64,000 bases of DNA from Paracoccaceae bacterium (lineage in GTDB: Bacteria > Pseudomonadota > Alphaproteobacteria > MPNO01 > UBA830): the NCBI GenBank assembly GCA_047638395.1, contig JBLIMV010000020.1:39101-103100 (forward strand). The letters run 5' to 3'. The translations under genes and the position numbers were made by a program. The notes under the pieces are model-generated. The model did not search any database. It was not told the DNA's origin and saw only the letters and a list, made by a program, of their open reading frames with translations. Positions within the stretch are counted from its first letter, which is position 1, and each line of letters opens with the position of its first letter. This document shows, piece after piece, positions 1 through 60,719 of the stretch.

Positions 1-2530
1 CTAGATCGACATCCTCTATATTGTCGACCATTGTGCCATCGGCGAAACCAAGGCAGTCGTTGATAAATTCACCATCCGCGCCACGCTGGGCGGTGGAGAT
101 GATTTTCGAAGCATCGCATTGGTGCCGACCGTAAACCGTACGCATCGATTGGACGATATCGCGCTGACGGTTGTGTTCCGCGGCCGGAACACCCGGTCGC
201 TTGTCGATGAAATCGTTAAAGCTTGTGAGTTGGCGTAACCCGATTTGGCGGCGGAGCTCGTTAAAGCGGGGCAGGCCGTGTTCCCGGTCGCGGATGATGT
301 CGAGCGCCGGCACGTCGATCTTTGAATCCATCCGGGGGCGGAGGTCGAGGTTCTGCAGGAAACGCGGATGGTTCCGGAGCAGGAGCAGGCCAAGCCGCTG
401 GCGGCCCATGGAGAGCCCCCAGTTCACCATGCCGTGGTTGCGCATCGCGTCAGTGGCGCCAGACCGGAAGGTGCTGACTGTCGCGATTTTTTCTCGGATG
501 ATGTTCGGATCGCTTCCCCAGTCGCGCAGCTCCAGCAGGTCCGGAATCATCGGATGTAGCCGGTAGACGGTGGCGAACTCCTCCGGGAAATTGAACGGCG
601 AGCCGAAATGGTTGGTCCCGCCATTGACGTGTCCCGGATTGTTCAGGTCCCACTGATCCATCCCCAACAGGCGGTGCAGGCCTGTCGGAAACAGCGAATT
701 TCCGCGCCCGACAATGCCCGGTCCGGCGGCTAGCGCGGAGAAAATCTGGTTCGCCTTTTTCGGATCCTTTGACTTGGCAAACCGGTCGACGATCCGCGCC
801 GTCACCCGTGACAGGATGCCGTCCTTTTTGAACAGCCCGCTCCAGTTCGAATTCATGCCAAGGTCCAGCGGCTTGCCGTAGAGCAGCTGTGCCGTCCATT
901 CGATCGTATGAATCTTGGCGATCTCGGCCGACACGATCAACCGGGCAACCTGATACAGCTCCTCGTCCGAGATCCCGGCATAGCTGATCGGCGCACCCGG
1001 GCGTGCCGGATTGCGCAGCCCCGTATCGGCGTTGGGGGTTGCCTGCGCCCGTTTGCGGAATTCATCGATAATCAGGTTGTGTTCGCGGACGAACAGATTG
1101 TGCAGAAAGCTCGTGCCGACGGTCCAGTTATCGGGAAACGCGGTTGCTTCCTGCCCGGCCCATTCCCGCTGGATCGGATCGCAGGCACTGTCAGCAGGTG
1201 TCGCGCAGGGTTTGCGGAACAGCGGCAGGTATCCCTGGCGTTCTCCCGCGCCGGGGCGGTTGCCGACGCTTTCCATCAGCAGTTTTGCGGGATCGGCGGG
1301 GTCGCGGCGCGCGCGCTGCCCAGACCGCTTGCTGTAGCCGTATATGGGGGATGCGTCCCACCATGCCGTCATATGATTCCGGGATGTCCGGTAGGCGCGG
1401 CTGAGGTGGGTCTTGCCATTTGCCGAAAAGACCTCGGGGTCTTCGCTGTCGGCGATCAGGGCCGCATCCAGCTTGTCGTCCGGTCGGCAGCCAAGGCTGG
1501 CGATCTCGTCCGCGCTGAGGGCTCGTTCGGAAATGCCGGCACGCTGGCTCGCGCAGCCCGTCGTCGGCAGCATCTTTGCCGTATCGTTCCGGCCTTCGAG
1601 CGTGTGCGAGAACCAGTCATGGGTCATGAACTGTATCCAGAACGCCGCGAGGACATTGAAAAACGGCGCTTTGCGATAGGGACAATCCGCCGACTTATCG
1701 CCGTCGGTACCAGACCCTTCGTTGCAGCCGATGGCGCCCGCATTGTCGCGGCTGAACAGTTTGCGGCTGATCACTTGCGGGTCCGGTTTCATCATGCCGA
1801 TGCGATCGCCATGGCGGTTACGGGCAAGCTGGTTTTTGCCAAGCTCCGGAAACGTGGCTTCGAACTCAACATTGCGGGCAAATTTCTGGCCGGCAGATCC
1901 CATGGCCGGATTCAGAATATCATTGCAGATGCCCGTCAGCGTCCGGTGTCGGATCAGATCGCCGGTACAGAGTTGCGATCCGTCTGGCGCAACTTGGATG
2001 TCCCGCGATTTGGGATGGTCTGCGGGGAGGCGCATTTCCGGCCATTGTTTTACGACCGCGCCATTTATATCGCGGTCGCCATCACGTTTGCCGGACACAT
2101 AGGTCCTGTAGGTGCCGTTATTGTCGAACAGGTTGAACCGGATAAGCTCCATGCGCTGGTATTCAAGATCAATCAGCGCACCGTCTATGCCGCGCTGGTT
2201 CCGGTCGGTAAAGCGGCCACCGCTGTTCCGGCGTGGTGCCCTGGATGACGCATCCCCGGTCGCCCAGTAGTTTGCCCAGTCGACCCAGGGCGTGTCCATC
2301 TGCGCGACCGCTTTTTCACCGCCACGGCAGCGGGCGCGGTATTCTTCGACCTTGCCCAGAAAACGGCGTGACCGGTCATCCGCGATGTCCCTCAGGCCAT
2401 TGCTGGCGAGGTTGTCCGCGACCTGCAGACAGGCGCGTACGATGGCGCTGTCTTCCGGTGTCTTGTCGCATGCGGCGACGACCGTCAGCGCCGCCACGGA
2501 AAACGCGGCGGTCTGCAAAAACCGTTTCAT
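1..2530 (-). CDS. Animal-haem-peroxidase family lipoprotein (peroxidase/cyclooxygenase superfamily), partial: C-terminus lies beyond window start
   Basis: Not in the ORF track (no in-window stop). Minus-strand translation by eye from ATG at complement(2528..2530) gives MKRFLQTAAFSVAALTVVAAC (lipobox VAAC) and reads on without a stop to position 1. Family motifs seen: TGICNDILNPAMGSAGQKF (cf. animal peroxidase N-terminal CNN..LGA), AAFWIQFMTHDWFSH (distal His-Asp region) and SFLHNLFVREHNLIIDEFRKRA (cf. LFLREHNRLA of myelo/lactoperoxidase). The 446-aa plus-strand ORF 908..2248 is its antisense shadow. Hand translation could hide a frameshift. Confidence 0.7.
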   Translation of the reverse strand, partial: MKRFLQTAAFSVAALTVVAACDKTPEDSAIVRACLQVADNLASNGLRDIADDRSRRFLGKVEEYRARCRGGEKAVAQMDTPWVDWANYWATGDASSRAPRRNSGGRFTDRNQRGIDGALIDLEYQRMELIRFNLFDNNGTYRTYVSGKRDGDRDINGAVVKQWPEMRLPADHPKSRDIQVAPDGSQLCTGDLIRHRTLTGICNDILNPAMGSAGQKFARNVEFEATFPELGKNQLARNRHGDRIGMMKPDPQVISRKLFSRDNAGAIGCNEGSGTDGDKSADCPYRKAPFFNVLAAFWIQFMTHDWFSHTLEGRNDTAKMLPTTGCASQRAGISERALSADEIASLGCRPDDKLDAALIADSEDPEVFSANGKTHLSRAYRTSRNHMTAWWDASPIYGYSKRSGQRARRDPADPAKLLMESVGNRPGAGERQGYLPLFRKPCATPADSACDPIQREWAGQEATAFPDNWTVGTSFLHNLFVREHNLIIDEFRKRAQATPNADTGLRNPARPGAPISYAGISDEELYQVARLIVSAEIAKIHTIEWTAQLLYGKPLDLGMNSNWSGLFKKDGILSRVTARIVDRFAKSKDPKKANQIFSALAAGPGIVGRGNSLFPTGLHRLLGMDQWDLNNPGHVNGGTNHFGSPFNFPEEFATVYRLHPMIPDLLELRDWGSDPNIIREKIATVSTFRSGATDAMRNHGMVNWGLSMGRQRLGLLLLRNHPRFLQNLDLRPRMDSKIDVPALDIIRDREHGLPRFNELRRQIGLRQLTSFNDFIDKRPGVPAAEHNRQRDIVQSMRTVYGRHQCDASKIISTAQRGADGEFINDCLGFADGTMVDNIEDVDL

Positions 2531-2728
2531 GGGCCTACCCCTTATCTATTGTCCAAATGCCTACCCGACAATCGACTACTGACTACCCGACGTAATCGTA
2601 ATTCGGACTGCGCGAATTTCCAACCTTGAGATGAAAATATTCTGCCGGTTGAGTTTCTTCGCTTGCAGCGATTCACCCGGCGACTCATAATCCTGTTCTG
2701 TATTCAACAATCGGAAGGAGGTGATCGA

Positions 2729-2806
2729 GTGTCTCATTGTCTAAAGGTGCGGCCTTCGGCTGCCAGGATCTGGATCTTCACCTCTTTAGAGGCTCGCTTC
2801 GACTGA
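2729..2806 (+). CDS. 25-aa mini-ORF (GTG start) with strong Shine-Dalgarno; possible leader peptide or small protein
   Basis: GGAAGGAGGTGA lies 7 nt upstream of GTG. The ORF VSHCLKVRPSAARIWIFTSLEARFD ends about 45 nt before a strong intrinsic terminator. It lies in the 437-bp divergent intergenic region upstream of the hydrolase gene. Below the ORF-track length cutoff. Speculative. Confidence 0.2.
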   Translation: MSHCLKVRPSAARIWIFTSLEARFD

Positions 2807-2850
2807 GTTGATGTATTCATGGTCCGCTCCAGGGACCGTGTCTGACAATG

Positions 2851-2887
2851 GAAGGGTCGCCCAATCGGGCGGCCCTTCGTCTTTTTG
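2851..2887 (+). terminator. Rho-independent terminator-like hairpin followed by T-tract, plus orientation
   Basis: gaagggtcgccc-aatc-gggcggcccttc forms a 12-bp GC-rich stem (one G.U) and is followed by gtcttttttg. The T-tract exists only on the plus strand, so it would terminate a short plus-strand transcript (sRNA or leader) about 80 bp upstream of the 2968 ATG. Confidence 0.5.
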
Positions 2888-2967
2888 CGGGCCATGAATT
2901 GCGGTGATGCATGCGCCGCCGCATACTGAACTGGAAATATACAGGCGAACAATAAGGGAGAAGTGCC

Positions 2968-3813
2968 ATGCCGATGGCCACAGTGCGCGGATTGAACATC
3001 AACTATGAAATCGTTGGCGATGCCGGGGACATTTCTCACCCCTGGGTCGCCCTGATTACCGGTGGGCGCCGCGGCTATCAGGAATTTCTGCCGCTCGCCG
3101 GCAAGATTGCGGCGAAGGGTTTCCGCGTATTGCTGCATGATCGTCGCAATACAGGCGCTTCCGATATTGAACTGGAAGCGCATGAGGTTGAAGAGGCGAC
3201 ATGGGCCGACGACCTGCGTGATTTGCTCGATCAGCTGGGCGCTGCACCCGCTTTTATCGGCGGCTCGTCGTCCGGTGCGCGGACCGCGATCATGTTCGGT
3301 CTGCGCCATCCGGACGCCACCCGGGCGTTGATGCTGCTGCGCGTCACCGGCGGTGCATTCCCGGCAAAGCGGCTGCCGGAGATGTATTACGGCCAGTTCA
3401 TCGATATCGCGAAGCAAGGCGGCATGGCCGCGATCTGCGAGACCGATACCTGGCGCGAACGGATCGAGAGTAATGCGGCCAACCGCGAAAAGCTGATGGC
3501 GATCGACGCCGATGAATTCATCTCGACGCTGTCCAAGTGGAAAGAACTGTTCGAAGCAGGGGCGAACCTGCCGGTGATGGGCGTGACCGAAGATCAGCTT
3601 GGGAGTTTGGCGATGCCGACCATTGTCATCCCCGGCAACGACAATACCCATTCATCGGAAAGCGGGCGGACCGCGCACCGGATGATTCCCGGCAGCGAGA
3701 TTCACGATCTCGGGCTCGACGATGTCGATATCGCCCTGATCCCGTATCCGGACTGGGCGCCGTATGAGCTGGAAATCGTCGACGTGTTGACCGGGTTTAT
3801 GGGGCGAAATTAA
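2968..3813 (+). CDS. alpha/beta-fold hydrolase
   Basis: 281 aa with HDRRNTG oxyanion region and GGSSSGA nucleophile elbow (GxSxG). SD sequence aagggagaag precedes the ATG. Confidence 0.8.
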   Translation: MPMATVRGLNINYEIVGDAGDISHPWVALITGGRRGYQEFLPLAGKIAAKGFRVLLHDRRNTGASDIELEAHEVEEATWADDLRDLLDQLGAAPAFIGGSSSGARTAIMFGLRHPDATRALMLLRVTGGAFPAKRLPEMYYGQFIDIAKQGGMAAICETDTWRERIESNAANREKLMAIDADEFISTLSKWKELFEAGANLPVMGVTEDQLGSLAMPTIVIPGNDNTHSSESGRTAHRMIPGSEIHDLGLDDVDIALIPYPDWAPYELEIVDVLTGFMGRN

Positions 3814-5120: not shown

Positions 5121-6152
5121 TTACTTGCCTTTGAGGCCGAGAGCCGCCTGCATCCGGTCGATGATCGCCTGATCGACATTGGTGATGCGTTCGGCGGCGG
5201 CCTGCATATCCTGCCATTTTGCGGATTCCCAGGTCATCTTGCGCTGCTTCGCGCCGGCGATGGCTTCTGGGTCTGCGAACGATTTTTCAAACGCCATACG
5301 CAGCGCAGCAATACGATCCGCCGGAACACCGGGAGGGGCGAGCCAGCCGCGGCCCAGAATCATATTACCTGCCATCAGTTCAGCGACCTGCTTGTCTGTC
5401 GGGTCCGTCACCAGGTTTTTAAGCAACGGTACGTCGGGCATATCGGTCAGCGGTGTGTGGGCGTTGACCGCAATCACGTTCACCTGCTCGACCCAATGCG
5501 ACCGGGCAATTTTCATGCCGGACCATGAGGACTGGAAACCCTGTACCTCTTTCTTGTCCATGGCGAGATAAATGCCGCCCATCCCGCGATAGCCGGTGAT
5601 GACCTTGAACTTGGTGCCGAGCATCTTGTTGACCAGCGTCGGGACGACATAGGTCTGCGACCCCTTGCCGGTGGAGCCGAGCACGACCTGTTTTTTCTTG
5701 GCATCGTCGATACTTGTTACGCCGGTGCTCTTGTAAACAACGAAGGCGCTGCGCGGCTGGTCTGCGCCGCCAAGAAACTGGAAGTCCTTCGCGACGTATT
5801 TGACGCCGGTGGTCCGAAGTCGTGACGCCAGGGGCGTATCTGACAGCAGAATACCGATCATCGTGCCGTCTTTGCGGCCACGCGTATAAAGGAAGTTAGC
5901 AGCCTTGGTGCCGCCGGCGCCACCCATGTTCTGGACGATGACGTTTGGGCTGCCAGGCAGGTATTTTTCAAGGAACGGTGCCAGGTACTGGGTGTACTTG
6001 GTGTGACCGCCGCCGGGGCCCGCTGCCACGACGACCGTGATGGTTTTTCCCTTGTAGAAATCGGCAACGGCATCGGCCGCCGCCGGGGCAGCGAAACCGA
6101 TCGCAGCCAGAGTAGCTACGGCAAGTCCGGGTAGTGAATTTCGCATCGTCAT
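5121..6152 (-). CDS. Bug/TctC-family tripartite tricarboxylate transporter substrate-binding protein
   Basis: Signal peptide MTMRNSLPGLAVATLAAIGFAAPAAA and typical Bug-family length and sequence features (GGAGG.. loop). No tctA/tctB adjacent, so an orphan Bug receptor. Confidence 0.75.
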   Translation of the reverse strand: MTMRNSLPGLAVATLAAIGFAAPAAADAVADFYKGKTITVVVAAGPGGGHTKYTQYLAPFLEKYLPGSPNVIVQNMGGAGGTKAANFLYTRGRKDGTMIGILLSDTPLASRLRTTGVKYVAKDFQFLGGADQPRSAFVVYKSTGVTSIDDAKKKQVVLGSTGKGSQTYVVPTLVNKMLGTKFKVITGYRGMGGIYLAMDKKEVQGFQSSWSGMKIARSHWVEQVNVIAVNAHTPLTDMPDVPLLKNLVTDPTDKQVAELMAGNMILGRGWLAPPGVPADRIAALRMAFEKSFADPEAIAGAKQRKMTWESAKWQDMQAAAERITNVDQAIIDRMQAALGLKGK

Positions 6153-7318: not shown

Positions 7319-8347
7319 ATGACCATCGACATGCACGCCCATTGGAGCCCGCCCGAACTGATCGATATCTATCGGGCGCGGACCGAGCCGCCGATGATCT
7401 ATAAGAACGCCGAAGGCGAGGAGGTCATCAAGACCCGGCGCGGCGAGCAGGCCTTCGAAGGTATGTTCGACGACCTCGAGACCCGCCTTGCCGAAATGGA
7501 CGCGCATGGGGTGACAACCGGTGTCTTGTCGCTCTGGGGGCCGCATCAGTGGATCGAGCGGCTGCCCGTCGCGCAATCCGTGCCGGCGGTGCAGGTGTTT
7601 AACGACGCGACGTCGGCGATGTGTGCCGAAAACCCGGGCCGCTTTGTTGCTTATGGCTCGTTGCCAATGGCCGATATGGATGCCGCTGTCGCCGAGCTGG
7701 ACCGGATCATGGCGCTGCCCGGCATGATCGGCGCCATTGTGCCCGCCAATGCCTTCATGACCTATGCCGATGCGGAGGCGTTACGTCCGCTGCTGGCCGC
7801 CGCCAACAGGCACAAGGCGGCGCTGTTTATCCATTGGGGGCCGCGACCCGGCGATGTGTGGCCGCGTACGCCTGCCGATAATGACAATTTCATTCGCCGT
7901 ATGGGCACGCTGGATATGCAGGCCAGTCTTTCCGCCTGCACGGTGACGCTGACCATGACGGATTTGCTGGACGACTATCCGGATGCCCGGTTCCACATTC
8001 ATAATCTTGGCGGGAATATTGCGTTCGAGGTTGAACGTCTTGATCACCGGAGCATGCTGGATTCGCCGGATGAGCCATTGCCGTCGACCCGGCTGACGAA
8101 GCCCAACCTCTGGTATGACTGCAATTCGTTCGGGGCGAAGTCGATCGACATGGCGATCTCGCTCTATGGCGTGGACCGTATCGTCTATGCGACCGACGGG
8201 ACGGCTTTCGGGTGCGACTGGACCAACAAGGCGATCGCCGGCGCGGACCTGACCGAGGACGAGCGGGACTTGATCCGCACCGGAAATGCCCGGGCGATGC
8301 TGGGCCACCTCGCGCCGCTTCAGGGCCTCGCCGAGGCTGCCGAGTGA
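7319..8347 (+). CDS. Amidohydrolase-2 family metal-dependent hydrolase/decarboxylase (ACMSD/LigW/LigJ-like), paralog 1 of 4
   Basis: N-terminal IDMHAHWSP (the HxH metal ligands of PF04909) and TIM-barrel length. SD sequence gaagga precedes the ATG. Confidence 0.8.
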   Translation: MTIDMHAHWSPPELIDIYRARTEPPMIYKNAEGEEVIKTRRGEQAFEGMFDDLETRLAEMDAHGVTTGVLSLWGPHQWIERLPVAQSVPAVQVFNDATSAMCAENPGRFVAYGSLPMADMDAAVAELDRIMALPGMIGAIVPANAFMTYADAEALRPLLAAANRHKAALFIHWGPRPGDVWPRTPADNDNFIRRMGTLDMQASLSACTVTLTMTDLLDDYPDARFHIHNLGGNIAFEVERLDHRSMLDSPDEPLPSTRLTKPNLWYDCNSFGAKSIDMAISLYGVDRIVYATDGTAFGCDWTNKAIAGADLTEDERDLIRTGNARAMLGHLAPLQGLAEAAE

Positions 8348-12018: not shown

Positions 12019-12969
12019 TTAAGCACCGAATTGGGGAAAGAGTTTGAGCGCGTTGTCGCGTTCGATTCCCTGCAGCACGTCGGGGTCGAGTCCCATTTCC
12101 TGCAGGGCCTTGATCGAGCCTGTCATGGTCGGTTCCGGTGCGAACGGATAGTCGCTGCCGAACAGCACGTGGTCTGGTGTGACCAGCTCGAACAGGCTGC
12201 GGAAGGCAAGCCAGTTCGCCGACAGCGCTGTGTCGTAATACAGCCGCTCCAGTTCGGGGACGACGCCGTTCGGTACGTGTTCCTTGAAGCCCGGGCGGCC
12301 CTGGAGGCGGCCGATGCGCTCGGCAAGGAACGGAATTGCCCCGCCGGCGTGGCTGAAAATGAAATTGATGTCCTGGCAACGCGCGAACGTGCCGTTGAAC
12401 AGCAGGCTGACCACGGCGCGCGTCGTATCGAACGGGAAATCCAGCGTCGCCGCGGGAATTTCCGGCTGGCACTGGTTGCAGGGTGCATTGGTCGGGTGGA
12501 AATAGACGGTCGCTTTCCGCCGGTTCAGTTCATCGAAGACCGGTGCAAAGGCCGGGTCGCCGGGGTAGCGGTTACCGTATGATGTCAGCAGGCCGATGCC
12601 GTCGGCCTTCAGTTCGTCCAGCGCATAGGCGATTTCGGCGAGGCTGGCGTCAACATCGGGCAGCGGCAGCGAGGCAAACACGCCGAACCGGGTAGGGTGG
12701 TCCTTCGTGATCTCGGCGGCATATTCGTTGCAGTGCCTGCAGAGATCGATGGTTTCCTGGGTTTCGCCGAACCACAGACCGGGCGCGGAGATCGATGTCA
12801 GCGCGGTCTGGATACCGTTGCGGTCCATCGCCTCGATCGACATTTCAGGCGTCCATTCCGGCGTCTTGCCCGCCAGGATCAGCGGGCCGATCCGGTCATC
12901 GCCGACGATCTCGACATAGTTCGGCGGCAGGATGTGGTGATGAACGTCGATGCGGTGGCAATTTTCCAT
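12019..12969 (-). CDS. Amidohydrolase-2 family protein (decarboxylase/hydratase-like), paralog 2
   Basis: IDVHHHILP N-terminal metal motif with TIM-barrel length. Clear paralog of 29828..30781 (MAGRIDVHHHVLPEFY...). Confidence 0.8.
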   Translation of the reverse strand: MENCHRIDVHHHILPPNYVEIVGDDRIGPLILAGKTPEWTPEMSIEAMDRNGIQTALTSISAPGLWFGETQETIDLCRHCNEYAAEITKDHPTRFGVFASLPLPDVDASLAEIAYALDELKADGIGLLTSYGNRYPGDPAFAPVFDELNRRKATVYFHPTNAPCNQCQPEIPAATLDFPFDTTRAVVSLLFNGTFARCQDINFIFSHAGGAIPFLAERIGRLQGRPGFKEHVPNGVVPELERLYYDTALSANWLAFRSLFELVTPDHVLFGSDYPFAPEPTMTGSIKALQEMGLDPDVLQGIERDNALKLFPQFGA

Positions 12970-12980
12970 CCGAATGATCC

Positions 12981-14390
12981 TTAGGGTTTTGTATAGCCGT
13001 CGATAAAGTCGGCGAGATTGATGTCTTCATTCCCCGGAACGTAAATCTCGTCCGGGTAGTTGTCCTTGCGGGTCGCGTCGATGCCCATTTTGGTTACCAG
13101 GTGCGATCCGCCCGCCGGATCGTAGGACGCGGGATCGAGCGGTGAGCCTTTGGCGTATGGGATCATAAATGTGTCCCGGTCGGCGCGGACCCGCGTGGCG
13201 ATGGCATGCATCACCTCGGTATCGCTGGTGATGTCGACGTCATGATCGACCACCACCACGAATTTCAGGAACGGATCGGTGACGAAGGCGGCCATTGCGG
13301 CGGCTTTCGCCTCGCCTTCGATCTTGCGGTTGATCGCGATGTAGCACACGAAACGGAAACGGCCCGACCGCGGCATGTGGACGCCGGTGACTGTCCCGCA
13401 GGCGATTTTGACGGTCTCTTCTATGGCGGTCGACCGGATCACGCCTGAGAGCAGCAGGTTATCGGCATGGCCGACAAAGGCATTCTGGTAGAGCGGGTTT
13501 TTGCGGTGGGTAATCGCCAATATATCGAGTACCGGGTTCATGCGTTCGGGGCCGTAGGTGCCGGGGAATTCGCCGAATGGCGCTTCCGCGCGGCGTTCCT
13601 TCGGGCGGATCACACATTCGATGACCATTTCGGCGTCGGCCGGCACATTGAGCGGGATTGTCTTGCAGGGCACCAGCTGCACCGGGCGCTGCAGGATTCC
13701 CCCCGCAAGATGAAGCTCATTGGAATCGATCGGCGTGTAGCTCAGCGAGCCGAGGAAGAAGGCCGGGTGATGGCCGATGACGATGGCGATCGGGCAGGGC
13801 TCACCGCGTTCTTCATATTTCTTCCAGATCACGTTGCCGTCGGCAGTTTCCGACAGCTGCACGCCAAGCTCGTTCTTTGCGTGCACCTGGTGGCGGTAGA
13901 TGCCGATATTGTCGATGCCCGTATCCGGATCGCGCATCAGGGCGAGACCCGCCGTGATGAACTTACCGGCGTCGAGCTCGTGATAGGTGCAGATCGGGAA
14001 TTCCTCGATATCGATCTCATCCCCGGTTTTAACGATCTCGTGCACGGGACCGGTCTCGACCATGACCGGCTCAATCGGGTGGGATTCGCGCGCCGCGAAT
14101 TCGGTCAGAAAGGCTTTTTCGTCGCCTTCTTCCATGCCGATGCCATAGCGCAACCGGCTAAAGCTGCCATGCATATTGGCGACCAGCGGGTATTCCGAGC
14201 CTTTGACGTTCTCGAAGATGACGGCCTTGAAGTGGCCTTCTTTTTCCAGCCGGTGAAGAATACCGGAAACGCCGTATTTCGGATCGACTTCCTTGGTGAT
14301 GCGGATGATCTCTTCGGGGTGTTCTTTTTCGAGATACTCGATGAATCCGCGAAGATCCGATGTGTAGGGCTGGTTGGATAACCCGTCCAT
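12981..14390 (-). CDS. UbiD-family (prFMN-dependent) aromatic acid decarboxylase, paralog 1
   Basis: UbiD-like N-terminus DLRGFIEYLEKEHPEEIIRITKEVDP and overall length. Start set at the internal Met (MDGLSNQPY) preceded by SD aaagga, 26 codons into the track ORF. No UbiX (flavin prenyltransferase) is present in the window. Confidence 0.85.
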   Translation of the reverse strand: MDGLSNQPYTSDLRGFIEYLEKEHPEEIIRITKEVDPKYGVSGILHRLEKEGHFKAVIFENVKGSEYPLVANMHGSFSRLRYGIGMEEGDEKAFLTEFAARESHPIEPVMVETGPVHEIVKTGDEIDIEEFPICTYHELDAGKFITAGLALMRDPDTGIDNIGIYRHQVHAKNELGVQLSETADGNVIWKKYEERGEPCPIAIVIGHHPAFFLGSLSYTPIDSNELHLAGGILQRPVQLVPCKTIPLNVPADAEMVIECVIRPKERRAEAPFGEFPGTYGPERMNPVLDILAITHRKNPLYQNAFVGHADNLLLSGVIRSTAIEETVKIACGTVTGVHMPRSGRFRFVCYIAINRKIEGEAKAAAMAAFVTDPFLKFVVVVDHDVDITSDTEVMHAIATRVRADRDTFMIPYAKGSPLDPASYDPAGGSHLVTKMGIDATRKDNYPDEIYVPGNEDINLADFIDGYTKP

Positions 14391-14394
14391 GTTG

Positions 14395-14808
14395 TTATTC
14401 CTTTGATGTGTCTCTGGGCGGATCAATCGGCCCGCCGGCCTCGATCCAAGCATTGATGCCGCCTTCAAGATGCGCGACGGGGGTCAGACCCATGTCGTGG
14501 GCGGTTTTTGCTGCCAGCGCCGATCGCCACGCGCCTGCGCAGTAGAATATAAACTTTTTGTCTTCGGCAAAGAAATCGCGGTGATAGGACGTATCCGGGT
14601 CGATCCACATTTCCAGCATGCCGCGGGGCACGTGGCGTGCGCCCGATATACGGCCGGACTTGGCAACTTCGCGGATGTCGCGGATGTCGATAAACAGAAC
14701 GTCGTCGCGGCCGATCAGCGCGCGCGCGTCGGCAATGCTGATTTCTTCAACATGCTCATTGGCCTCGGCGACCATCTGTTTGACGGACCGCGTGATGTTG
14801 AGTGCCAT
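14395..14808 (-). CDS. Rhodanese-domain sulfurtransferase
   Basis: Active-site loop FYCAGAWRSA (Cys-X4-Arg) in a single rhodanese domain of 137 aa. Confidence 0.8.
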   Translation of the reverse strand: MALNITRSVKQMVAEANEHVEEISIADARALIGRDDVLFIDIRDIREVAKSGRISGARHVPRGMLEMWIDPDTSYHRDFFAEDKKFIFYCAGAWRSALAAKTAHDMGLTPVAHLEGGINAWIEAGGPIDPPRDTSKE

Positions 14809-15863: not shown

Positions 15864-16784
15864 GTGTTGTTACGAAAAGCGGTGAGAGAAAATCGGGTCA
15901 TGACCATACGGTTCGACGATATCGGCAACCGGCTGAAAGCTTTCAGGCTGGCCTCCGGGCTGAGTGCGGATGAGATCGCCGGGCGTCTCGATATATCGCG
16001 CACGGCCCTGTACCGCTTCGAGAAGGGCGAGGTCGCGAAGATCGAAACGCTCGAGAAATTATCCGAGCTTCTGGATGTGTCGGTGCCCACACTTCTGGGT
16101 GTCGGCGTTGAATACATCTCGTCCGCCGTGGCGTTCTTCGAGCGGCTCCGCCAGATCGAGGAAAGCGCGGAGCATATCGTGGTCCTCGCCGGGCCGGTCT
16201 CCTATCTGCTGGCGTCCGATTCCTTTGGTGAGACACTGGAAGAAGTGTTGGCTGAAAGCATTCCCGAAGGTGCTGCCGATCACGACCGCGCGCAGGAAAT
16301 CGTCCGCGAACTGATTCCCATCCTGCGCCAGCGCAAGGAAACCTGGCGGGCGCGCAAGCCCGGTCTTCTGAACCTTATTTCCGGCGCTGAAATCGACCGG
16401 TTCCTGCGGAACGGCATGGTGGGGCGACTCGATCTGCCCGATGCCGTTCTGGCCGAGCGTCGCCGCCGGGCATTGCGCGAAGCGGAGCACCTGATCGCCT
16501 TGATGGAAGAGGAACCCATCGGTGTCCAGATCGGTATTGTGCCGGGAGCCCTGCCCCATAACAGCTTCCAGATATTCCGTCAGTCCGACCGCAAGGTGTT
16601 GACGCTCAGCCCTTTCCGGCTTGGCGAGCAGCCAAACGTCCATAGCGGCATTGCGATGATTACGTCGGCGCCGGAAGCGCTCGAGCTGCACGAACGCACC
16701 GTCGAAGACATGTGGCGCCGCGCGCATAAAGGTCAGGCGGCGGCAACCTACATGCGCAGTCTGATCAAGAACCTGCCGAGCTGA
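15864..16784 (+). CDS. XRE-family HTH transcriptional regulator with C-terminal sensor-like domain
   Basis: HTH_XRE core LKAFRLASGLSADEIAGRLDISRTALYRFEKG. An alternative start at Met13 (MTIRFDD, +36 nt) is possible. The stop lies 1 nt before the next gene. Confidence 0.7.
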   Translation: MLLRKAVRENRVMTIRFDDIGNRLKAFRLASGLSADEIAGRLDISRTALYRFEKGEVAKIETLEKLSELLDVSVPTLLGVGVEYISSAVAFFERLRQIEESAEHIVVLAGPVSYLLASDSFGETLEEVLAESIPEGAADHDRAQEIVRELIPILRQRKETWRARKPGLLNLISGAEIDRFLRNGMVGRLDLPDAVLAERRRRALREAEHLIALMEEEPIGVQIGIVPGALPHNSFQIFRQSDRKVLTLSPFRLGEQPNVHSGIAMITSAPEALELHERTVEDMWRRAHKGQAAATYMRSLIKNLPS

Positions 16785-16785
16785 C

Positions 16786-18111
16786 ATGGCGGAAGGTCTC
16801 CAGGAACTGATCGAGGCGGCAGCGCAGCATCAGCGGGCCGGACGATTTGACGAGGCCGAGGAATGCTATCGCGCGGCGCTTGGTCTGGGGCCCGATAACC
16901 CGGGCGTTCTGCACAATCTCGGCGCGCTCGTTGCCCGGCGGGGGGAGCCGTCGACGGCGCTCGACCTGTTCGACCGGCTGCTGGCCGCAGAGCCGTATTA
17001 TGCGTCGGCCCATTTCAACCGCGGCAACGCCCTGTGGGCGCTGAACCGCCAGGACGACGCCATACAGGCGTTCAGGGCGGTCGTGGCGCTGGAGCCGGAT
17101 CACCACGATGCCCACCGCGCATTGGGGTTCCTCTGGCTGGCGGCAGGGGATCGCGACCGATCGCTCGATCACTTCGCGCGGACCTATGATCTGCGGCGTG
17201 GCGAAGACCGGAACGGCATGGCGAACCGCTCTCTCCGAATGGCGACGGGGCCCAAGCTGCAGCATGATGCCGACCTGTTTCGCCACCTTCCTGCGCGGGT
17301 GCGCGATGGGCGCCGGTTCGAAACACTGGCACGGCTTTACGAAAGTGTTGTCGTGGACCTTACGGATGAAGCGGTTGAGCTGTCGGACAGCCAGCTCGAA
17401 TCGCTTGGCCCGGATTACAACAGCGCGATCCATTTTCTTGACGCGCCCGAGATTTTCAGTGGCACGGTGAATGGCGCCCTCGATGCCGACGCGATTACGC
17501 GGATGTACCGCGAAACCGAACCGGGGATTGCCTGGTTCGATGATCTGCTGACGCCGAAGGCCCTGGCAATGCTGCAACGGTTCCTGCGCGAAAGCACGAT
17601 CTGGCATGATTTTTCCCATATCGGGGGGTTTGTTGCCACCTATCTGGAAGACGGGCTTGCCTGTCCGCTGGTTCTGCAGGTTGCGGATGAATTTCGCGTG
17701 GCGCTGCCAGATCTTCTCGGCCCCCATACGTTGACCCAGGCATGGGCGTTCAAGGGGCTTCGGGGCGACCAGCCGATTGACGTTCATGCCGACGATGCAG
17801 CGATCAGCCTGAATTTCTGGGTGACACCGGATAGCGCGAACCGTAATCCCGACCGGGGCGGTCTCGCGATTTACCGTGAAGTGCCGCCGCCGGACTGGCC
17901 AATTGTCGATTACGACGCCGACCGGGCGCGTATCCGCGCATTTCTGGACAGCCGTGGCGATTCGGCGGTGATGGTGCCGTACTGCGAAAACCGGGCCGTT
18001 CTGTTTGATTCCCGCCTGTTTCATGGCTCCGACGCCCCTGATTTTGCGCCGGGCTACGAAAACCACAGGATCAACATTACAATGCTGTTCGGAACAGCAG
18101 GCGATTTGTAA
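16786..18111 (+). CDS. TPR-repeat protein with C-terminal cupin/2OG-Fe(II)-oxygenase-like domain (AspH-like architecture)
   Basis: N-terminal TPR-like repeats (RAGRFDEAEECYRAALGLGPDNPGVLHNLGALV..., AHFNRGNALWALNRQDDAIQAFRAVVALEPDHHDAH). The C-terminal domain has a VHADDA (HxD) ... LFHGSD (His) arrangement consistent with a 2-His-1-carboxylate fold. Domain assignment is inferred, not proven. Confidence 0.6.
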   Translation: MAEGLQELIEAAAQHQRAGRFDEAEECYRAALGLGPDNPGVLHNLGALVARRGEPSTALDLFDRLLAAEPYYASAHFNRGNALWALNRQDDAIQAFRAVVALEPDHHDAHRALGFLWLAAGDRDRSLDHFARTYDLRRGEDRNGMANRSLRMATGPKLQHDADLFRHLPARVRDGRRFETLARLYESVVVDLTDEAVELSDSQLESLGPDYNSAIHFLDAPEIFSGTVNGALDADAITRMYRETEPGIAWFDDLLTPKALAMLQRFLRESTIWHDFSHIGGFVATYLEDGLACPLVLQVADEFRVALPDLLGPHTLTQAWAFKGLRGDQPIDVHADDAAISLNFWVTPDSANRNPDRGGLAIYREVPPPDWPIVDYDADRARIRAFLDSRGDSAVMVPYCENRAVLFDSRLFHGSDAPDFAPGYENHRINITMLFGTAGDL

Positions 18112-18191
18112 CAAAAATGGAACAAGTCTTTATTTTGGTACAAACTCCGCCTATAAATACCCCATACGAATGATCCAATAGAAGTGATCCC
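18112..18191 (+). promoter_or_regulatory. AT-rich intergenic segment, putative promoter of the pyrK/pyrD-like operon
   Basis: tctttattttggtacaaactccgcctataaatacc is strikingly AT-rich for this genome. It contains TATAAAT-like and TTGGTA/TTTATT elements. Spacing to -35 candidates is ambiguous. Confidence 0.25.
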
Positions 18192-23759: not shown

Positions 23760-25289
23760 ATGAACGAAGAAGCGCCGAACAAGGCCGCAAATGCCCAGAA
23801 CGAACCTATTCAGGACCTCCGGCAATGGCTGGAAGCGGTCGAGGAGATCAATGAGCTGGTGAAGGTGTCCGAACCTGTCAGCCGCGATCAGGAAATGAGC
23901 GCCATTGGGTACCTGCTCGCCAAGCAGCAACCTTCGCCGACGGTGATGTTTGAAAAAACCGTCGGTTTTGAAGATGACGGAATCGGCGCGCGGTTGCTCT
24001 GGAACCTGGCTGGACCCAGCTTGAAGCGTATTGCGATTACGCTCGGCGAGTCGCCCGAAATGAACACGACCGACCTGATCGAAAAGGTCAAAGGCAAGCT
24101 GATGAAGCGCATCCCGCCGCGCGAAGTCGCTGCGGACGAAGCGCCGGTGTTCGAAAACACGCTGACCGGCGACGATATCGATCTCGACAAGTTTCCGATC
24201 CCGATGCACTGGCCGCTGGATGGTGGGCGTTATCCCGGCACCGCCGATTGCGTCATCACCCGCGATCCCGATAGCGGCTATCTGAATGTCGGTACCTACC
24301 GGATGATGCAGCAGGGCAAGCGCGAAGCCGGTCTGTACCTTTCGCCCGGCAAGGATGCGCGGTTGCATATCGAACGCGCTTGGGAGCGCGGTGAATCGAT
24401 TGAAGTTGCAGCGGCCTGGGGGGTCGATCCGATCTTCATGCTGGTCGGCTCACAGGGCTTCCCGAAGAACATCTCGGAATACGAATTTATCGGTGGTATC
24501 CGCGATCAGGCGGTGTCTGTCGTGAAGGGTAAAACCACGGACCTGCTGATCCCCGCCAATGCGGAACTGGTGATCGAAGGCGTGCTCAAACCAGGCTCGA
24601 TGAAGGGCGAAGGCCCGTTCGGTGAGTTCACCGGCTATTATGGCCGGCCAGAGGGTGATGCGCCGCTGGTGGAAATTACCGCGCTTCATCATCGCAATCA
24701 GCCGATCATGACGAATGCGCTGATGGCGGACTATCCGTCCTGCGAACAGAGCGGGTTTTTCGCCATTATCCGCTCGGCGCGTGTGTGGAACGATTTCGAC
24801 AAGCTCGGTATTCCGGGGATTCAGGGCGTGTATTGTCACCCCGCCGCCGCCGGTGGCTGGGGTATGACGGTCATCAGCGTCGAGCAGCGTTATGCCGGCC
24901 ATGCAGCGCAGGTACTGGCGCTGGCTGCGCAGGTGCCGGGCGGCGCCTATTACACGAAATGGATCATTGCCGTTGATGAGGATGTCGATCCCTGCGATAT
25001 GGATCAGGTCCTCTGGGCGATGGCCAGCCGCAGCAACCCGATTGATGATATCGATATCCTGCGCAATACGTGGAGCACCCAGCTCGACCCGAGCCAGTAT
25101 CCGCCCGAGAACCGCCCCTATGGGTCAAAGGCGCTGATCAATGCGTGCAAGGATCACAAGAACCTGAAGAATTTTTCCAAGCGGACAATGCTCAGCAAGG
25201 AAATCTACGACAAGGTGTCTGCAGACTGGGAACGGCTGGGGCTGCCGGGAGAAGTGCCCCATGTCCGTAATTTCGAAAAGGACGTGTGA
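23760..25289 (+). CDS. UbiD-family decarboxylase, paralog 2
   Basis: 509 aa. UbiD-like central region (ITRDPDSGYLNVGTYRMM, GEGPFGEFTGYYG) matches paralog 1 (PFGEFPGTYG). Confidence 0.85.
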   Translation: MNEEAPNKAANAQNEPIQDLRQWLEAVEEINELVKVSEPVSRDQEMSAIGYLLAKQQPSPTVMFEKTVGFEDDGIGARLLWNLAGPSLKRIAITLGESPEMNTTDLIEKVKGKLMKRIPPREVAADEAPVFENTLTGDDIDLDKFPIPMHWPLDGGRYPGTADCVITRDPDSGYLNVGTYRMMQQGKREAGLYLSPGKDARLHIERAWERGESIEVAAAWGVDPIFMLVGSQGFPKNISEYEFIGGIRDQAVSVVKGKTTDLLIPANAELVIEGVLKPGSMKGEGPFGEFTGYYGRPEGDAPLVEITALHHRNQPIMTNALMADYPSCEQSGFFAIIRSARVWNDFDKLGIPGIQGVYCHPAAAGGWGMTVISVEQRYAGHAAQVLALAAQVPGGAYYTKWIIAVDEDVDPCDMDQVLWAMASRSNPIDDIDILRNTWSTQLDPSQYPPENRPYGSKALINACKDHKNLKNFSKRTMLSKEIYDKVSADWERLGLPGEVPHVRNFEKDV

Positions 25290-31891: not shown

Positions 31892-34606
31892 CTAACGGCC
31901 TGTGCTGGAAAAGCTGACTCTGTCGTCCCGGCGGAACGATTTCATGATTGGCCCAGTCATATAATCCCGGTCCGAGTTGGCGATTCCGATCCGTATCTCC
32001 TGGTCTGCGTTGGAGAGGGTTTTCGGTTGGGTGATCGGGGCTTTCAGGAATGCAGATGGGACACTCGCCTCTCCCGTGTCACGCGTTTCCCGGTCACGAT
32101 CGGAACCTTCGCTTACGGAGACCCGCGTAGCGTCGCCATCGCCGTCACGTTCATCGCCCCCAATTTCTCTCACTGTGACTGTGTCACCGGGCTCTATCTT
32201 TCCAGGCAAATCCGTGACGACCCGGCCCCCCGGTAGCTCGGTCGGTGTGGGGCTGACAATTATCGCCGGGCGTGGATCGCCGATAAAGGGTGCCGGTGCC
32301 GGTGGCGGTGTCCACGGGCCTTCGCGGCGCCAGCCGAATGAGCCGTCCTTGGTTTCGCCAAATACATGGCCTGCATGTTCGCCGGTGCCGACAGCGAAGG
32401 TCCGACCGTCCGGCGTTTTGATGATTTCAAGCTTGTAGACCGAGCCTTTGAACAAGGCTTCTTCCATGACACCAACGCTTTCACCTGCAAGCCGCGGCGG
32501 GCGCGGCACTATCGTCGTCTGCGTCCTCGCGCCGGGGACACTGGCCGACGCAAGGCCGTCCTTGGTTGTTACAATGGTGGTGGCGTCCGCGGTTTTCTGC
32601 CTGGCGCTTTCCTCGCGCTCGATTCTGGTTTCTACGGCCTGACCTGCCTTGTCCGCTTCCGAGGGTGTTTCCCCTTTTCTCAATGCATCTGTCATGGCTT
32701 CCGCTGATTCCCGATTGGAGAACCCAAACGTCTTGCCGGATTTCGGATCTGTCACGACGAATGTATCGTCTTCACCGGATTGCTTGTCGACGCGGATGGA
32801 CGGTGCGCGGAATTCCTTGGGCACACTGTCTCTGAGCGCATCGACAAATTCGGTGGATCTGGCGACCGCGCCCGTGTCGCGTGTCGCGGGATCGCTGTCG
32901 GGGCCATAAGTCTCCTCCAGCACGTCTTTGAATGGCTTACCATTGCGCAGATCAGTTGCCATTTGCTGAGCGAGAGAGGGGTTTTTCGTAATAACCTCCT
33001 CACCGGTATCCGGCACGAAAACGTAATAATTGCCCTCTTCGTCTGCGCTCAGTCGGACCGGGGTGTCGCCGAAAGCACCGCTATAGGCGATATCCGTTCG
33101 CCTCCTGTATGCAAGATCCGTTTCCGTCGTGCTACGCCCCTCGATGGCGGCAAGAACACCAACGACATAATTTGTCAGATCTGAATTGTCTTCCGGCAGA
33201 CTTGCCGGAATTTGCAGTGTCTGACCGAGCGTCAATTCATCGACAATGAGGCCATTGGCTGCCTTGATATCATCTACCGTTACGCCATAGCGGTCCGCCA
33301 GATCTTCCAGGGTCTCATTTACCTTGACGTCATGAGGGGGCGGTATGTTTTCGCCGCGGATCGCCGGCTCGGTCGGGAGGTTGTTCACGAACGTAGAAGC
33401 ATTCGCGTCCTGTATCGGGAAATCGTCGGCCGACTTGTTTTCCCAATCAGAATCGTTGAACGGGTATCTTATTTGGCCGTTTGCATAGGCAGTGTTCAAT
33501 TCCGCTGCTTTTTTGTATTTATCAGGCCAGTCCGCCTGATTATCGGGCAGGGCAACGGATTCACCGGTGCGCGGGTCTGTAAAGGAACCGCCGCCGCCGA
33601 AGGGGTCAAAATTCCCGGTGGTTGCGTTCTGGGCATAGGGGCCGGGATTGAATGCGCGGCCGCCAGTCGGGAAAGTGAGGGCCGGCGTGTCGCCGATGAA
33701 AGCCGGCGTCGCATCGAACCGGCTTCCCGCCTGCTCGTTTGTGGGCGGAGGGGTTGAATTTTTCATATCCTCCACCGATTTGGTCGCCCAGTCGGGGTCG
33801 CTGAACGGATAAAACGATATCTCGCCGTTAACGTAGGCGGAATTCAGATCGTCGGCATGCTGGACGCGTTCCGGCCATTTGCTGCGATCATCATCAAGAT
33901 CCACGACGTCTCCGGTGTCCGGGTCGAGAAAGACGTCAAAGCCTCCACCGAAAGGGTCCACATTCCCGGATGTCAAATTCTGGGCATAGACTCCGGTCGG
34001 ACCGACGGCCGGGCCGATCGGCCGGATGCCTGTCGTCCCACCGCAGCCACTGGGGCCACATTGGCCAAACCCTGTCTGGGGTACTGTTGGCCACTGGTCG
34101 AGGCCGCAGCTGGGCCCGCTGCCGCTGCCGCTGCCGCAGCCATAGCCGCCATTGGGCCCGGCGCCGAATACGGTCTCGGCGACGCCACCAGTACATTGAC
34201 TTCCAGAGCATTGATCTTGATTCCAGCCTGTTGGGATGACGATGGTCCGGCCGTCAGGGTCAACTCCGATAATTGCAGTTGGTTTCGACGACGAACTGTC
34301 CTCCGGGTTGACCGGTTCTTGGTTGCCGGGGCTTACCGGGCTGCCGAGCTGATTGTTCAAGTTCAGTAAGCCGGCGCCGGTTTCGGTGCCGCTTGGCGGC
34401 GCGCAACACGGCCCGGAAATTCCGCCGGAATTCCAGTTGATGGTGCCGTCCGCATTGATGGTAACGCTGTTCGAGCCGTTTGGGATACCCACGGGGCAGG
34501 TCCCGGAACTACCCAGATGGCTGCATTGGGCCTGTGCTTCTTTGGTCGATGTCCCGACGAACCCGGCACCAGCCATAACAGCGATCAGAAATAGAAATTT
34601 ACGCAT
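31892..34606 (-). CDS. Large secreted Cys-/Gly-rich repeat protein with a LysM domain (hypothetical)
   Basis: 904 aa with signal peptide MRKFLFLIAVMAGAGFVGTSTKEAQA. Cys-rich N-terminal region (QCSHLGSSGTCPVG...CCAPPSG...CGSGSGSGPSCG). Two about 90-aa internal repeats (GVYAQNLTSGNVDPFGGGFDV...DDRSKWPERVQHADDLNSAYVNGEISFYPFSDPDW and GPYAQNATTGNFDPFGGGGSF...DNQADWPDKYKKAAELNTAYANGQIRYPFNDSDW). LysM-like segment VKVNETLEDLADRYGVTVDDIKAANGL..LTLGQTLQIP. Starts 33 bp downstream of the OMP gene on the same strand. Confidence 0.7.
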   Translation of the reverse strand: MRKFLFLIAVMAGAGFVGTSTKEAQAQCSHLGSSGTCPVGIPNGSNSVTINADGTINWNSGGISGPCCAPPSGTETGAGLLNLNNQLGSPVSPGNQEPVNPEDSSSSKPTAIIGVDPDGRTIVIPTGWNQDQCSGSQCTGGVAETVFGAGPNGGYGCGSGSGSGPSCGLDQWPTVPQTGFGQCGPSGCGGTTGIRPIGPAVGPTGVYAQNLTSGNVDPFGGGFDVFLDPDTGDVVDLDDDRSKWPERVQHADDLNSAYVNGEISFYPFSDPDWATKSVEDMKNSTPPPTNEQAGSRFDATPAFIGDTPALTFPTGGRAFNPGPYAQNATTGNFDPFGGGGSFTDPRTGESVALPDNQADWPDKYKKAAELNTAYANGQIRYPFNDSDWENKSADDFPIQDANASTFVNNLPTEPAIRGENIPPPHDVKVNETLEDLADRYGVTVDDIKAANGLIVDELTLGQTLQIPASLPEDNSDLTNYVVGVLAAIEGRSTTETDLAYRRRTDIAYSGAFGDTPVRLSADEEGNYYVFVPDTGEEVITKNPSLAQQMATDLRNGKPFKDVLEETYGPDSDPATRDTGAVARSTEFVDALRDSVPKEFRAPSIRVDKQSGEDDTFVVTDPKSGKTFGFSNRESAEAMTDALRKGETPSEADKAGQAVETRIEREESARQKTADATTIVTTKDGLASASVPGARTQTTIVPRPPRLAGESVGVMEEALFKGSVYKLEIIKTPDGRTFAVGTGEHAGHVFGETKDGSFGWRREGPWTPPPAPAPFIGDPRPAIIVSPTPTELPGGRVVTDLPGKIEPGDTVTVREIGGDERDGDGDATRVSVSEGSDRDRETRDTGEASVPSAFLKAPITQPKTLSNADQEIRIGIANSDRDYMTGPIMKSFRRDDRVSFSSTGR

Positions 34607-60587: not shown

Positions 60588-60719
60588 ATAAAAAATATCT
60601 ACGAGGTCTAAAATTTACTTTGACCCGTATCCGGAACAGTAGCATTTTCCCGACGGATTAATTTCGTCGGTGACGTGTTTCACGTGCGGCTTTGCGCCTA
60701 TTTGGAGGCCTATTTAAGA

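Follow-up and report, generated by a model that had tools for sequence, protein, structure and literature searches.

Within the peroxidase-cyclooxygenase superfamily, the alpha-dioxygenases (alpha-DOXs) have been studied in plants, where structures are available for the rice enzyme OsaDOX (4KVJ, 4KVK and 4KVL) and for Arabidopsis alpha-DOX1 (4HHR and 4HHS), and in cyanobacteria, where CalDOX and LepDOX make fatty aldehydes (PMC8720084). In the rice enzyme, H311 binds the carboxylate and T316 positions the alpha-carbon (PMC8720084). An InterPro-based tree already held alpha-DOX-family sequences of Proteobacteria, Acidobacteria and other phyla, among which only the cyanobacterial enzymes have been characterised (Kim et al. 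2021, PMC8720084). Here we describe a bacterial gene of this branch, found at the edge of a 64,000-nucleotide stretch of contig JBLIMV010000020.1 of a Paracoccaceae bacterium (positions 39,101 to 103,100; hereafter, the window). Its product is probably an exported lipoprotein and, like COX, the fungal linoleate diol synthases and the 10S-DOX of Nostoc, which belong to the same superfamily, it follows the logic of a Tyr placed three residues before the proximal haem His. With MPO, LPO and EPO, and with the bacterial MopA-type peroxidases, it shares the An_peroxidase fold, the distal Gln and His, the Ca loop and a non-cytoplasmic location.

The gene lies on the minus strand and runs off the window. 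Translation of the minus strand of window positions 1-2530 gives 843 codons without a stop; given 0.030 stops per codon at the window's composition, a frame this long would arise by chance with a probability of around 6e-12. An earlier, automated first-pass annotation had reported this uninterrupted frame as 1..2530. The frame itself stands, but base 1 is part of codon 844 and the complete codons span 2..2530. Reading from an in-frame TAG (2546..2548), one meets the ATG at 2528..2530 before any other start codon, and both this ATG and the Shine-Dalgarno-like AAGGGG that precedes it (Table 1) are kept in L001, the locus of a 90%-identical homologue, P0001. The GC content at the three codon positions of the frame (0.62/0.47/0.74) matches that of nearby Pfam-supported genes. 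The last residue encoded in the window aligns with residue 846 of the 978 of P0001, which places about 132 C-terminal residues past the edge, and full-length relatives measure about 960-978 aa. The frame complement(2..2530) is that of a real gene, of which the window holds the 5′ 86%.

As the same annotation had noticed, the gene is missing from the list of open reading frames (ORFs) of the window. The reason is that the listing tool leaves out any ORF extending past the end of its source sequence. The list contains instead, on the opposite strand, a 446-aa ORF, which had been described as an antisense shadow, and we agree with this description. No Pfam match was found for it, its GC content by codon position (0.72/0.49/0.62) is the mirror of that of real genes, and in L001 stops divide the corresponding antisense frame into open segments of 293, 282 and 278 codons. 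A second antisense shadow is present in the list, a 305-aa ORF at 2734..3651 (minus strand) that has no Pfam match and overlaps the alpha/beta-hydrolase gene at 2968..3813 (plus strand).

The assignment of the protein to the animal haem peroxidase superfamily, which was also part of the first annotation, is well founded, as Pfam PF03098 (An_peroxidase) matches it with E=1.6e-57 and 195.7 bits, against a cutoff of 25. Neither a second Pfam domain nor a match to EGF or membrane-binding domains was found in the protein. NCBIfam gave no match, and for this reason there is no curated bacterial family name for it. The branch of the superfamily to which the protein belongs was assessed by three comparisons: phmmer searches with the single sequence against solved structures, searches with a family profile, and Foldseek searches with an AlphaFold model of the full-length homologue P0001. 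This model (pTM 0.74, mean pLDDT 62.6) is of moderate confidence, lowest round the haem pocket, and was used for fold-level comparison only.

All three comparisons place the plant alpha-DOXs closest. For the rice enzyme (4KVJ), the single sequence gave 1.2e-37, the family profile 1.2e-75 and Foldseek about 4e-16, with a TM-score of 0.67 normalised to the target; for the Arabidopsis enzyme (4HHR), the corresponding values were 2.4e-33, 1.9e-70 and about 1e-15. By contrast, MPO, LPO and a cyanobacterial peroxidase (8s6c) were matched at 1e-6 or weaker by the single sequence and at about 1e-8 by the profile, in short local segments only (just two segments of the profile align significantly with MPO/LPO), while Foldseek gave about 1e-5 for LPO and MPO. 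COX went undetected with the single sequence, reached 2e-4 with the profile (COX-1) and about 1e-3 with Foldseek (COX-1 and COX-2). The protein is thus closer to alpha-DOX than to the other branches of the superfamily both by profile (1e-75 versus about 1e-8 or weaker) and by predicted fold (4e-16 versus 1e-5), and it belongs to the alpha-dioxygenase branch.

The residues of the active site and of the substrate site are in agreement with this placement. Conservation was counted over 121 aligned rows, that is, 120 homologues and the truncated window protein, and the rice alpha-DOX numbering and residue roles were taken from PMC8720084 and checked against the alignments. The motifs quoted in the first annotation, WIQFMTHDW and LFVREHNLI, are both present in the translation, and around them the protein shares with plant alpha-DOX the Q..H-D motif, the TAWWD.S loop, the REHN sequence, the H311/W315/T316 site and the F375, Tyr379 and His382 positions. 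Q300 and H304-D305 correspond to Q153 and H157-D158 of the rice enzyme, H304 being the distal His. The residue directly before it, T303, holds the position of MPO Asp94, which we take to be the Asp that is ester-bonded to the haem; this residue is a Thr in all 121 rows. On the proximal side, the catalytic Tyr656 stands three residues before the proximal His659, and F652 corresponds to rice F375, which stacks on the Tyr. H659 aligns with rice H382 and is kept in 120 of the 121 rows, so the proximal His that the earlier reader had left to be located is in place. The Ca-binding residues can be proposed as well: D305 and T388, W390, D392 and S394 align with the HD and TAWWDGS residues of alpha-DOX and are invariant, and they presumably ligate the ion as in the alpha-DOX structures.

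Altogether, the equivalents of rice Q153, H157, H311, W315, T316, F375, Y379 and H382 are all present in the window and invariant in 120-121 of the 121 rows. A further group of alpha-DOX substrate-site residues, the channel residues F549, F552, I553 and A556 and the carboxylate-binding R559 with R558, has its equivalents in a GFAISET.F.IFILNASRRL segment past the window edge, where it is seen in the full-length homologues (116-119 of the 121 rows); in P0001, the two Arg are R876 and R877. From sequence, such a set of residues is much more likely to be the signature of a tyrosyl-radical fatty-acid dioxygenase than that of a halogenating peroxidase. Two functions had been suggested at the outset for proteins of this kind, fatty-acid oxygenation and the production of hypohalous acid. 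The former is strongly favoured, as alpha-DOX is closest by sequence and fold and the Tyr-x-x-His and carboxylate sites are invariant, but the latter is disfavoured; the dioxygenase is far likelier because the alpha-DOX residues are invariant and the haem-ester Asp of MPO is replaced by Thr.

In addition to the catalytic domain, the protein carries several characteristics that are expected in exported proteins. The lipoprotein signal of the original description was checked by hand against the PROSITE PS51257 rule only, which asks for K or R in the first seven residues, a hydrophobic stretch free of D, E, R and K, the pattern [LIVMFWSTAG]2-[LIVMFYSTAGCQ]-[AGS]-C, and the Cys at positions 15-35. 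The N-terminus, MKRFLQTAAFSVAALTVVAAC followed by DK as had been quoted, has K2 and R3, the stretch SVAALT at residues 11-16 and V17-V18-A19-A20-C21, so the protein is a predicted lipoprotein with Cys21 as the modified residue. The predicted lipidation is, nevertheless, restricted to part of the family: only the nearest clade retains Cys21 (32 of the 121 sequences), and a lipobox is found in about 30% of the 120 relatives, the remainder having either an ordinary signal peptide that looks cleavable or a hydrophobic membrane anchor at the N-terminus. Since one or another of these elements is found at the start of all 120 relatives, export appears to be universal in the family and lipidation a clade-level variant. 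Export through the Tat system was considered and discarded, because the KRF at the N-terminus is no twin-arginine and is not conserved among the relatives; Sec is therefore assumed.

The signal peptide is followed by a family-specific N-terminal domain of about 170 aa (residues 22-195), for which neither Pfam nor the PDB gave a match. An exhaustive search with this domain against 1.84 billion representatives returned 297 matches. The best 150 of the 297 look like members of the same family, either full-length or as fragments and frameshifted pieces, and on this basis a stand-alone form of the domain was rejected. In the mature protein, the 12 Cys form six neighbouring pairs (34/68, 188/202, 269/283, 326/348, 442/450 and 805/826), which are kept in 98-121 of the 121 sequences, the 442/450 pair being gained or lost jointly. 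This pairing fits a disulphide-bonded extracytoplasmic protein, and the signal peptide, the N-terminal domain and the Cys pairs all point to the periplasm.

These elements are also where the protein departs from its closest described relatives. Unlike plant alpha-DOX, it has a signal peptide with a lipobox and six Cys pairs, and it is about 350 residues longer, owing to the N-terminal domain, several insertions and a C-terminal tail. The architecture of the characterised enzymes, of about 600-650 aa (621 and 652 aa in the crystallised plant chains), is thus not that of the window protein, which would have about 975 aa at full length. To our knowledge, neither the plant enzymes, which are intracellular, nor the other characterised alpha-DOXs have a signal peptide. 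CalDOX and LepDOX belong to the same family and have the same key residues, as judged from the published residue list (PMC8720084). From COX the protein differs by its weak similarity (COX-1, E=2e-4), by the lack of EGF or membrane-binding-domain matches and by a carboxylate site of the alpha-DOX type, and from MPO, LPO, EPO and the MopA-type enzymes by the Thr in place of the haem-ester Asp, the Y-x-x-H, a similarity of about 1e-8 that is local only and the absence of RTX-type repeats.

We consider that the gene is functional and encodes an exported, Cys21-acylated haem b enzyme of about 975 aa that acts like an alpha-dioxygenase, and we give this reading a probability of roughly 0.6. In our model, the protein would be exported through Sec and acylated on Cys21, and it would face the periplasm from its membrane anchor, where the six Cys pairs would form disulphides. 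The Asp at position +2 would lead to retention in the inner membrane if the sorting rule of E. coli applies. By analogy with the plant and cyanobacterial enzymes, a peroxide would oxidise the haem, held between the proximal His659 and the distal His304, and the oxidised haem would in turn generate a tyrosyl radical at Tyr656. The carboxylate of a free fatty acid would be held by His541 and by the Arg pair encoded just past the window edge, with Thr546 positioning C2, so that the Tyr656 radical could take the C2 hydrogen. The addition of O2 would then produce a 2-hydroperoxy fatty acid, which would give either an aldehyde one carbon shorter, with CO2, or a 2-hydroxy acid.

Several observations weigh against this proposal. 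Identity to plant alpha-DOX is only about 25%, and the ~350 extra residues of the N-terminal domain, insertions and tail could alter the substrate or the chemistry. The equivalents of Arg558 and Arg559 fall outside the window sequence itself, and the structure model of P0001 (pLDDT 62.6) is weakest precisely round the haem pocket. A haem b enzyme exported through Sec would require the insertion of haem in the periplasm. Additionally, the clade of the window protein conserves no lipid-related partner gene except a generic alpha/beta-hydrolase, and no assayed member of the long exported clade was found in the searchable open-access literature.

Regarding its distribution, the family is far from rare in bacteria, contrary to what the first-pass annotation had stated for bacterial members of the superfamily. 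Among the candidates scored, more than 2,352 protein clusters match at E<=1e-5, and at least 595 species-representative genomes from many phyla have a relative. The best 120 relatives are about 930-1000 aa long and align over their full length with 56-90% identity. The matches listed include Nitrobacter, Methylomonas, Thioalkalivibrio, Roseateles, Undibacterium, Nitrospira, Desulfuromonadales and Sulfurovum, as well as Bryobacteraceae and other Acidobacteriota, and Methylomirabilota. Among these listed matches, no species genome is closer than 62% identity, and the closest relatives (73-90%) are metagenomic, one of them labelled Acetobacterales. Public databases name the members of the family only “peroxidase family protein” or “oxygenase”. 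The gene described here is, therefore, a further member of a bacterial alpha-DOX branch that had already been noticed and that is biochemically uncharacterised. We came across no work on the long exported form or on its gene clusters in the searchable open-access literature. As a separate observation, full-length relatives with 58-59% identity are present on short contigs of unexpected taxa, in metagenome-assembled genomes of Patescibacteria (L019) and Pedobacter (L010), a placement that could be a binning artefact or the result of horizontal transfer.

The genes surrounding members of the family vary considerably. In the window and in the contigs of the two closest homologues, the divergently transcribed alpha/beta-hydrolase is the sole shared immediate neighbour, and the downstream genes differ. 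This hydrolase is absent beside distant relatives, and it is not claimed as a functional partner because it recurs only in the closest ones. De novo clustering of the flanking ORFs of 85 loci gave no universal neighbour, the largest cluster covering 14 loci. A P450, a RoxA-like dihaem cytochrome c, a lipoxygenase-like (LOX-like) or a DyP-like gene is found within 5 kb in 24 of 84 loci (about 29%), and the gene directly downstream codes for an ABHD18-type hydrolase, a LOX-like protein or a FAD_binding_4 oxidase in 5-6 loci each. For instance, the DOX-like gene of Ca. Tenderia electrophaga (L002, 8001..15689) precedes genes for a P450, for a protein of 147 aa and for two RoxA-like dihaem cytochromes c. 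In locus L004 (1..16975), a patatin gene lies upstream, and the DOX-like gene leads into LOX-like, OYE-family reductase, RoxA-like cytochrome and P450 genes. No description of these two oxylipin-like clusters was found in the searchable literature. This context supports a role in lipid oxygenation at the level of the family, not directly at the window locus.

Two other observations were made in these loci. Downstream of the DOX-like gene, members of four gene families are found repeatedly, in 10-14 of the 85 loci; three of the families encode proteins of about 161, 398 and 433 aa without Pfam match, and the fourth encodes a protein of about 505 aa that weakly matches the DyP C-terminal region (examples at L048 13994..14611, L022 11074..12468, L034 5586..7154 and L060 17..1576), and they may be a divergent version of the P450, small protein and RoxA-like module. 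In six Nitrospira-type loci (L031 6144..7760 and five other Nitrospirota loci), the DOX-like gene is directly preceded, on the same strand, by a gene for a fusion of a trypsin-like protease with an FGE-sulfatase domain.

The association with P450 genes brings up the first of the other explanations, that the protein is a tyrosyl-radical haem dioxygenase of other regiochemistry, acting on an unsaturated fatty acid or another lipid, as do cyanobacterial 10S-DOX, the fungal linoleate diol synthases and COX, and passing its hydroperoxide to partners such as P450s. A P450 directly adjoins the gene, on the same strand, in six distant-relative loci, and clusters of distant relatives also contain LOX-like, OYE and patatin genes; the P450 adjacency recalls DOX-CYP fusions and cascades and resembles the DOX-CYP partnerships of fungi and animals (PMC13049297), and the large insertions and the N-terminal domain could reshape the substrate channel. 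However, the equivalents of H311, T316 and R559, which place the carboxylate and C2 by the catalytic Tyr, are invariant, the matches to COX are far weaker than those to alpha-DOX, and the clade of the window protein shows neither a P450 nor a LOX-like partner. We regard this explanation as unlikely, although it is the strongest competitor of the alpha-dioxygenase-like enzyme.

Still less probable is that the protein is a true extracytoplasmic peroxidase or oxidase, which would produce halide or thiocyanate oxidants, oxidise Mn(II) or generate superoxide, as has been reported for bacterial animal-haem-peroxidases such as MopA and the enzyme of Roseobacter. The protein does belong to the superfamily of these enzymes and is exported as the MopA-type ones are, and one of the relatives is found in a Candidatus Manganitrophaceae genome. 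Such a role would nevertheless be difficult to reconcile with the Thr found in all 121 sequences where MPO/LPO have the haem-ester Asp, with the Y-R-L-H signature of dioxygenases in the proximal region and with the gap between the local matches to MPO, LPO and 8s6c (about 1e-8) and that to alpha-DOX (1e-75). MopA enzymes also carry RTX/haemolysin-type Ca-binding repeats, which are absent here, PF03098 being the sole Pfam domain in the window protein and, by precomputed annotation, in all 120 relatives listed. In its favour, bacterial animal-haem-peroxidases have been linked to Mn(II) oxidation and superoxide production (PMC6247904, PMC6414704). Finally, a decaying pseudogene or a chance open frame is effectively refuted. 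The C-terminus does lie outside the window, and GC-rich DNA does yield long spurious ORFs such as the 446-aa antisense one, but a chance frame of 843 codons is very improbable, the codon-position GC is that of real genes, more than 100 proteins are 56-90% identical over their full length and the catalytic residues are intact.

Apart from the alpha-dioxygenase-like gene, the window contains a small RNA (sRNA) of the CC2171 family (Rfam RF01867) in the 437-bp divergent intergenic region between this gene and the alpha/beta-hydrolase. The match scores 74.4 bits against a gathering score of 75, and a default scan at the gathering threshold missed it by 0.6 bit. The block is 96.7% identical to L001, versus 84-86% for the flanking coding DNA, and its plus strand folds with z=-3.5. 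Northern blots have confirmed the CC2171 family in Caulobacter and Methylorubrum, and its presence here supports the view that the window is of alphaproteobacterial origin. Two small ORFs of the same region (25 aa on the plus strand and 28 aa on the minus strand) were dropped, as the Rfam scan by E-value gave this known sRNA family.

Table 1. Coordinates, in the window, of the alpha-dioxygenase-like gene, its parts and the adjacent features
Feature	Positions	Strand	Remarks
Partial coding sequence, exported alpha-dioxygenase-like haem protein	2..2530	-	843 codons, C-terminus cut by window edge
Shine-Dalgarno-like AAGGGG	2538..2543	-	7 nt upstream of ATG
Signal peptide with lipobox V-A-A-C, residues 1-21	2468..2530	-	Cys21 is the predicted lipidated residue; +2 is Asp
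Family-specific N-terminal domain, residues 22-195	1946..2467	-	Modelled mostly helical (moderate confidence); conserved Cys34/Cys68
An_peroxidase / alpha-DOX-like catalytic domain, residues 196-843	2..1945	-	Several insertions relative to plant alpha-DOX
Distal haem-pocket motif Q300-F-M-T303-H304-D305	1616..1633	-	Invariant (121/121)
T388-A-W390-W-D392-A-S394 loop, predicted Ca2+-binding	1349..1369	-	Aligns with alpha-DOX TAWWDGS; invariant (121/121)
R482-E-H-N485, superfamily REHN motif	1076..1087	-	From sequence and alignment
H541-T-I-E-W545-T546	893..910	-	Rice H311, W315, T316; invariant (121/121)
F652-A-T-V-Y656-R-L-H659	554..577	-	Rice F375, catalytic Tyr379, proximal His382; 120/121
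Antisense shadow ORF, 446 aa, not a gene	908..2248	+	No Pfam match, mirrored codon GC
CC2171-family sRNA (RF01867)	2705..2876	+	Model positions 1-159 of 159, 74.4 bits, E=1.4e-15
Terminator, 12-bp GC-rich hairpin and T-run	2851..2878	+	End of the CC2171-family sRNA
Alpha/beta-hydrolase, 281 aa, divergently transcribed	2968..3813	+	Only neighbour common to the contigs of the closest homologues

Some other genes of the window deserve mention. The genes between about 7300 and 25300 are suggestive of an island for the catabolism of aromatic acids, partly syntenic with the P0004 contig. It comprises two UbiD-family decarboxylases (12981..14468, minus strand, and 23760..25289, plus strand), two Amidohydro_2 proteins (7319..8347, plus strand, and 12019..12969, minus strand), a TauD-family dioxygenase, a molybdopterin hydroxylase subunit, a metallo-beta-lactamase-fold protein and an AMP-dependent ligase. 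At 60675..62372 (plus strand), an HlyD-type membrane-fusion protein has N-terminal EF-hand Ca-binding motifs, an unusual combination of domains, and at 31892..34606 (minus strand) a 904-aa protein with gene-like codon statistics has LysM as its sole domain. Two further ORFs on the minus strand, at 16765..18114 (449 aa) and 5121..6152 (343 aa), also have gene-like codon statistics and gave no Pfam match; the P0004 contig carries, at the same position as the latter, a 343-aa gene without Pfam match.

For the window, the immediate consequence of this analysis is a correction of its annotation, where a large gene cut by the edge had been missed and an antisense shadow of 446 aa was listed in its stead. 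If the chemistry proposed for the alpha-dioxygenase-like enzyme holds, Gram-negative bacteria would gain an extracytoplasmic route from free fatty acids to aldehydes, 2-hydroxy acids or oxylipins, which would bear on the turnover of envelope lipids and on signalling, on the use of biocatalysis to make fatty aldehydes and on the origin of the COX and DOX-P450 cascades. More tentatively, and with the odds rather against it, the long form of the protein (about 960 aa, exported, rich in disulphides and with a private N-terminal domain) may constitute a distinct and unstudied class of periplasmic fatty-acid dioxygenases of nitrifiers, methanotrophs, Acidobacteriota and many Proteobacteria, which in about a quarter of the genomes would head operons that also code for P450s, RoxA-like dihaem cytochromes c and lipoxygenase-like proteins. 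If this were true, such operons would represent a bacterial extracytoplasmic pathway of oxylipin synthesis or alpha-oxidation, and the DOX-CYP partnership of eukaryotes might have had a prokaryotic precursor in them.

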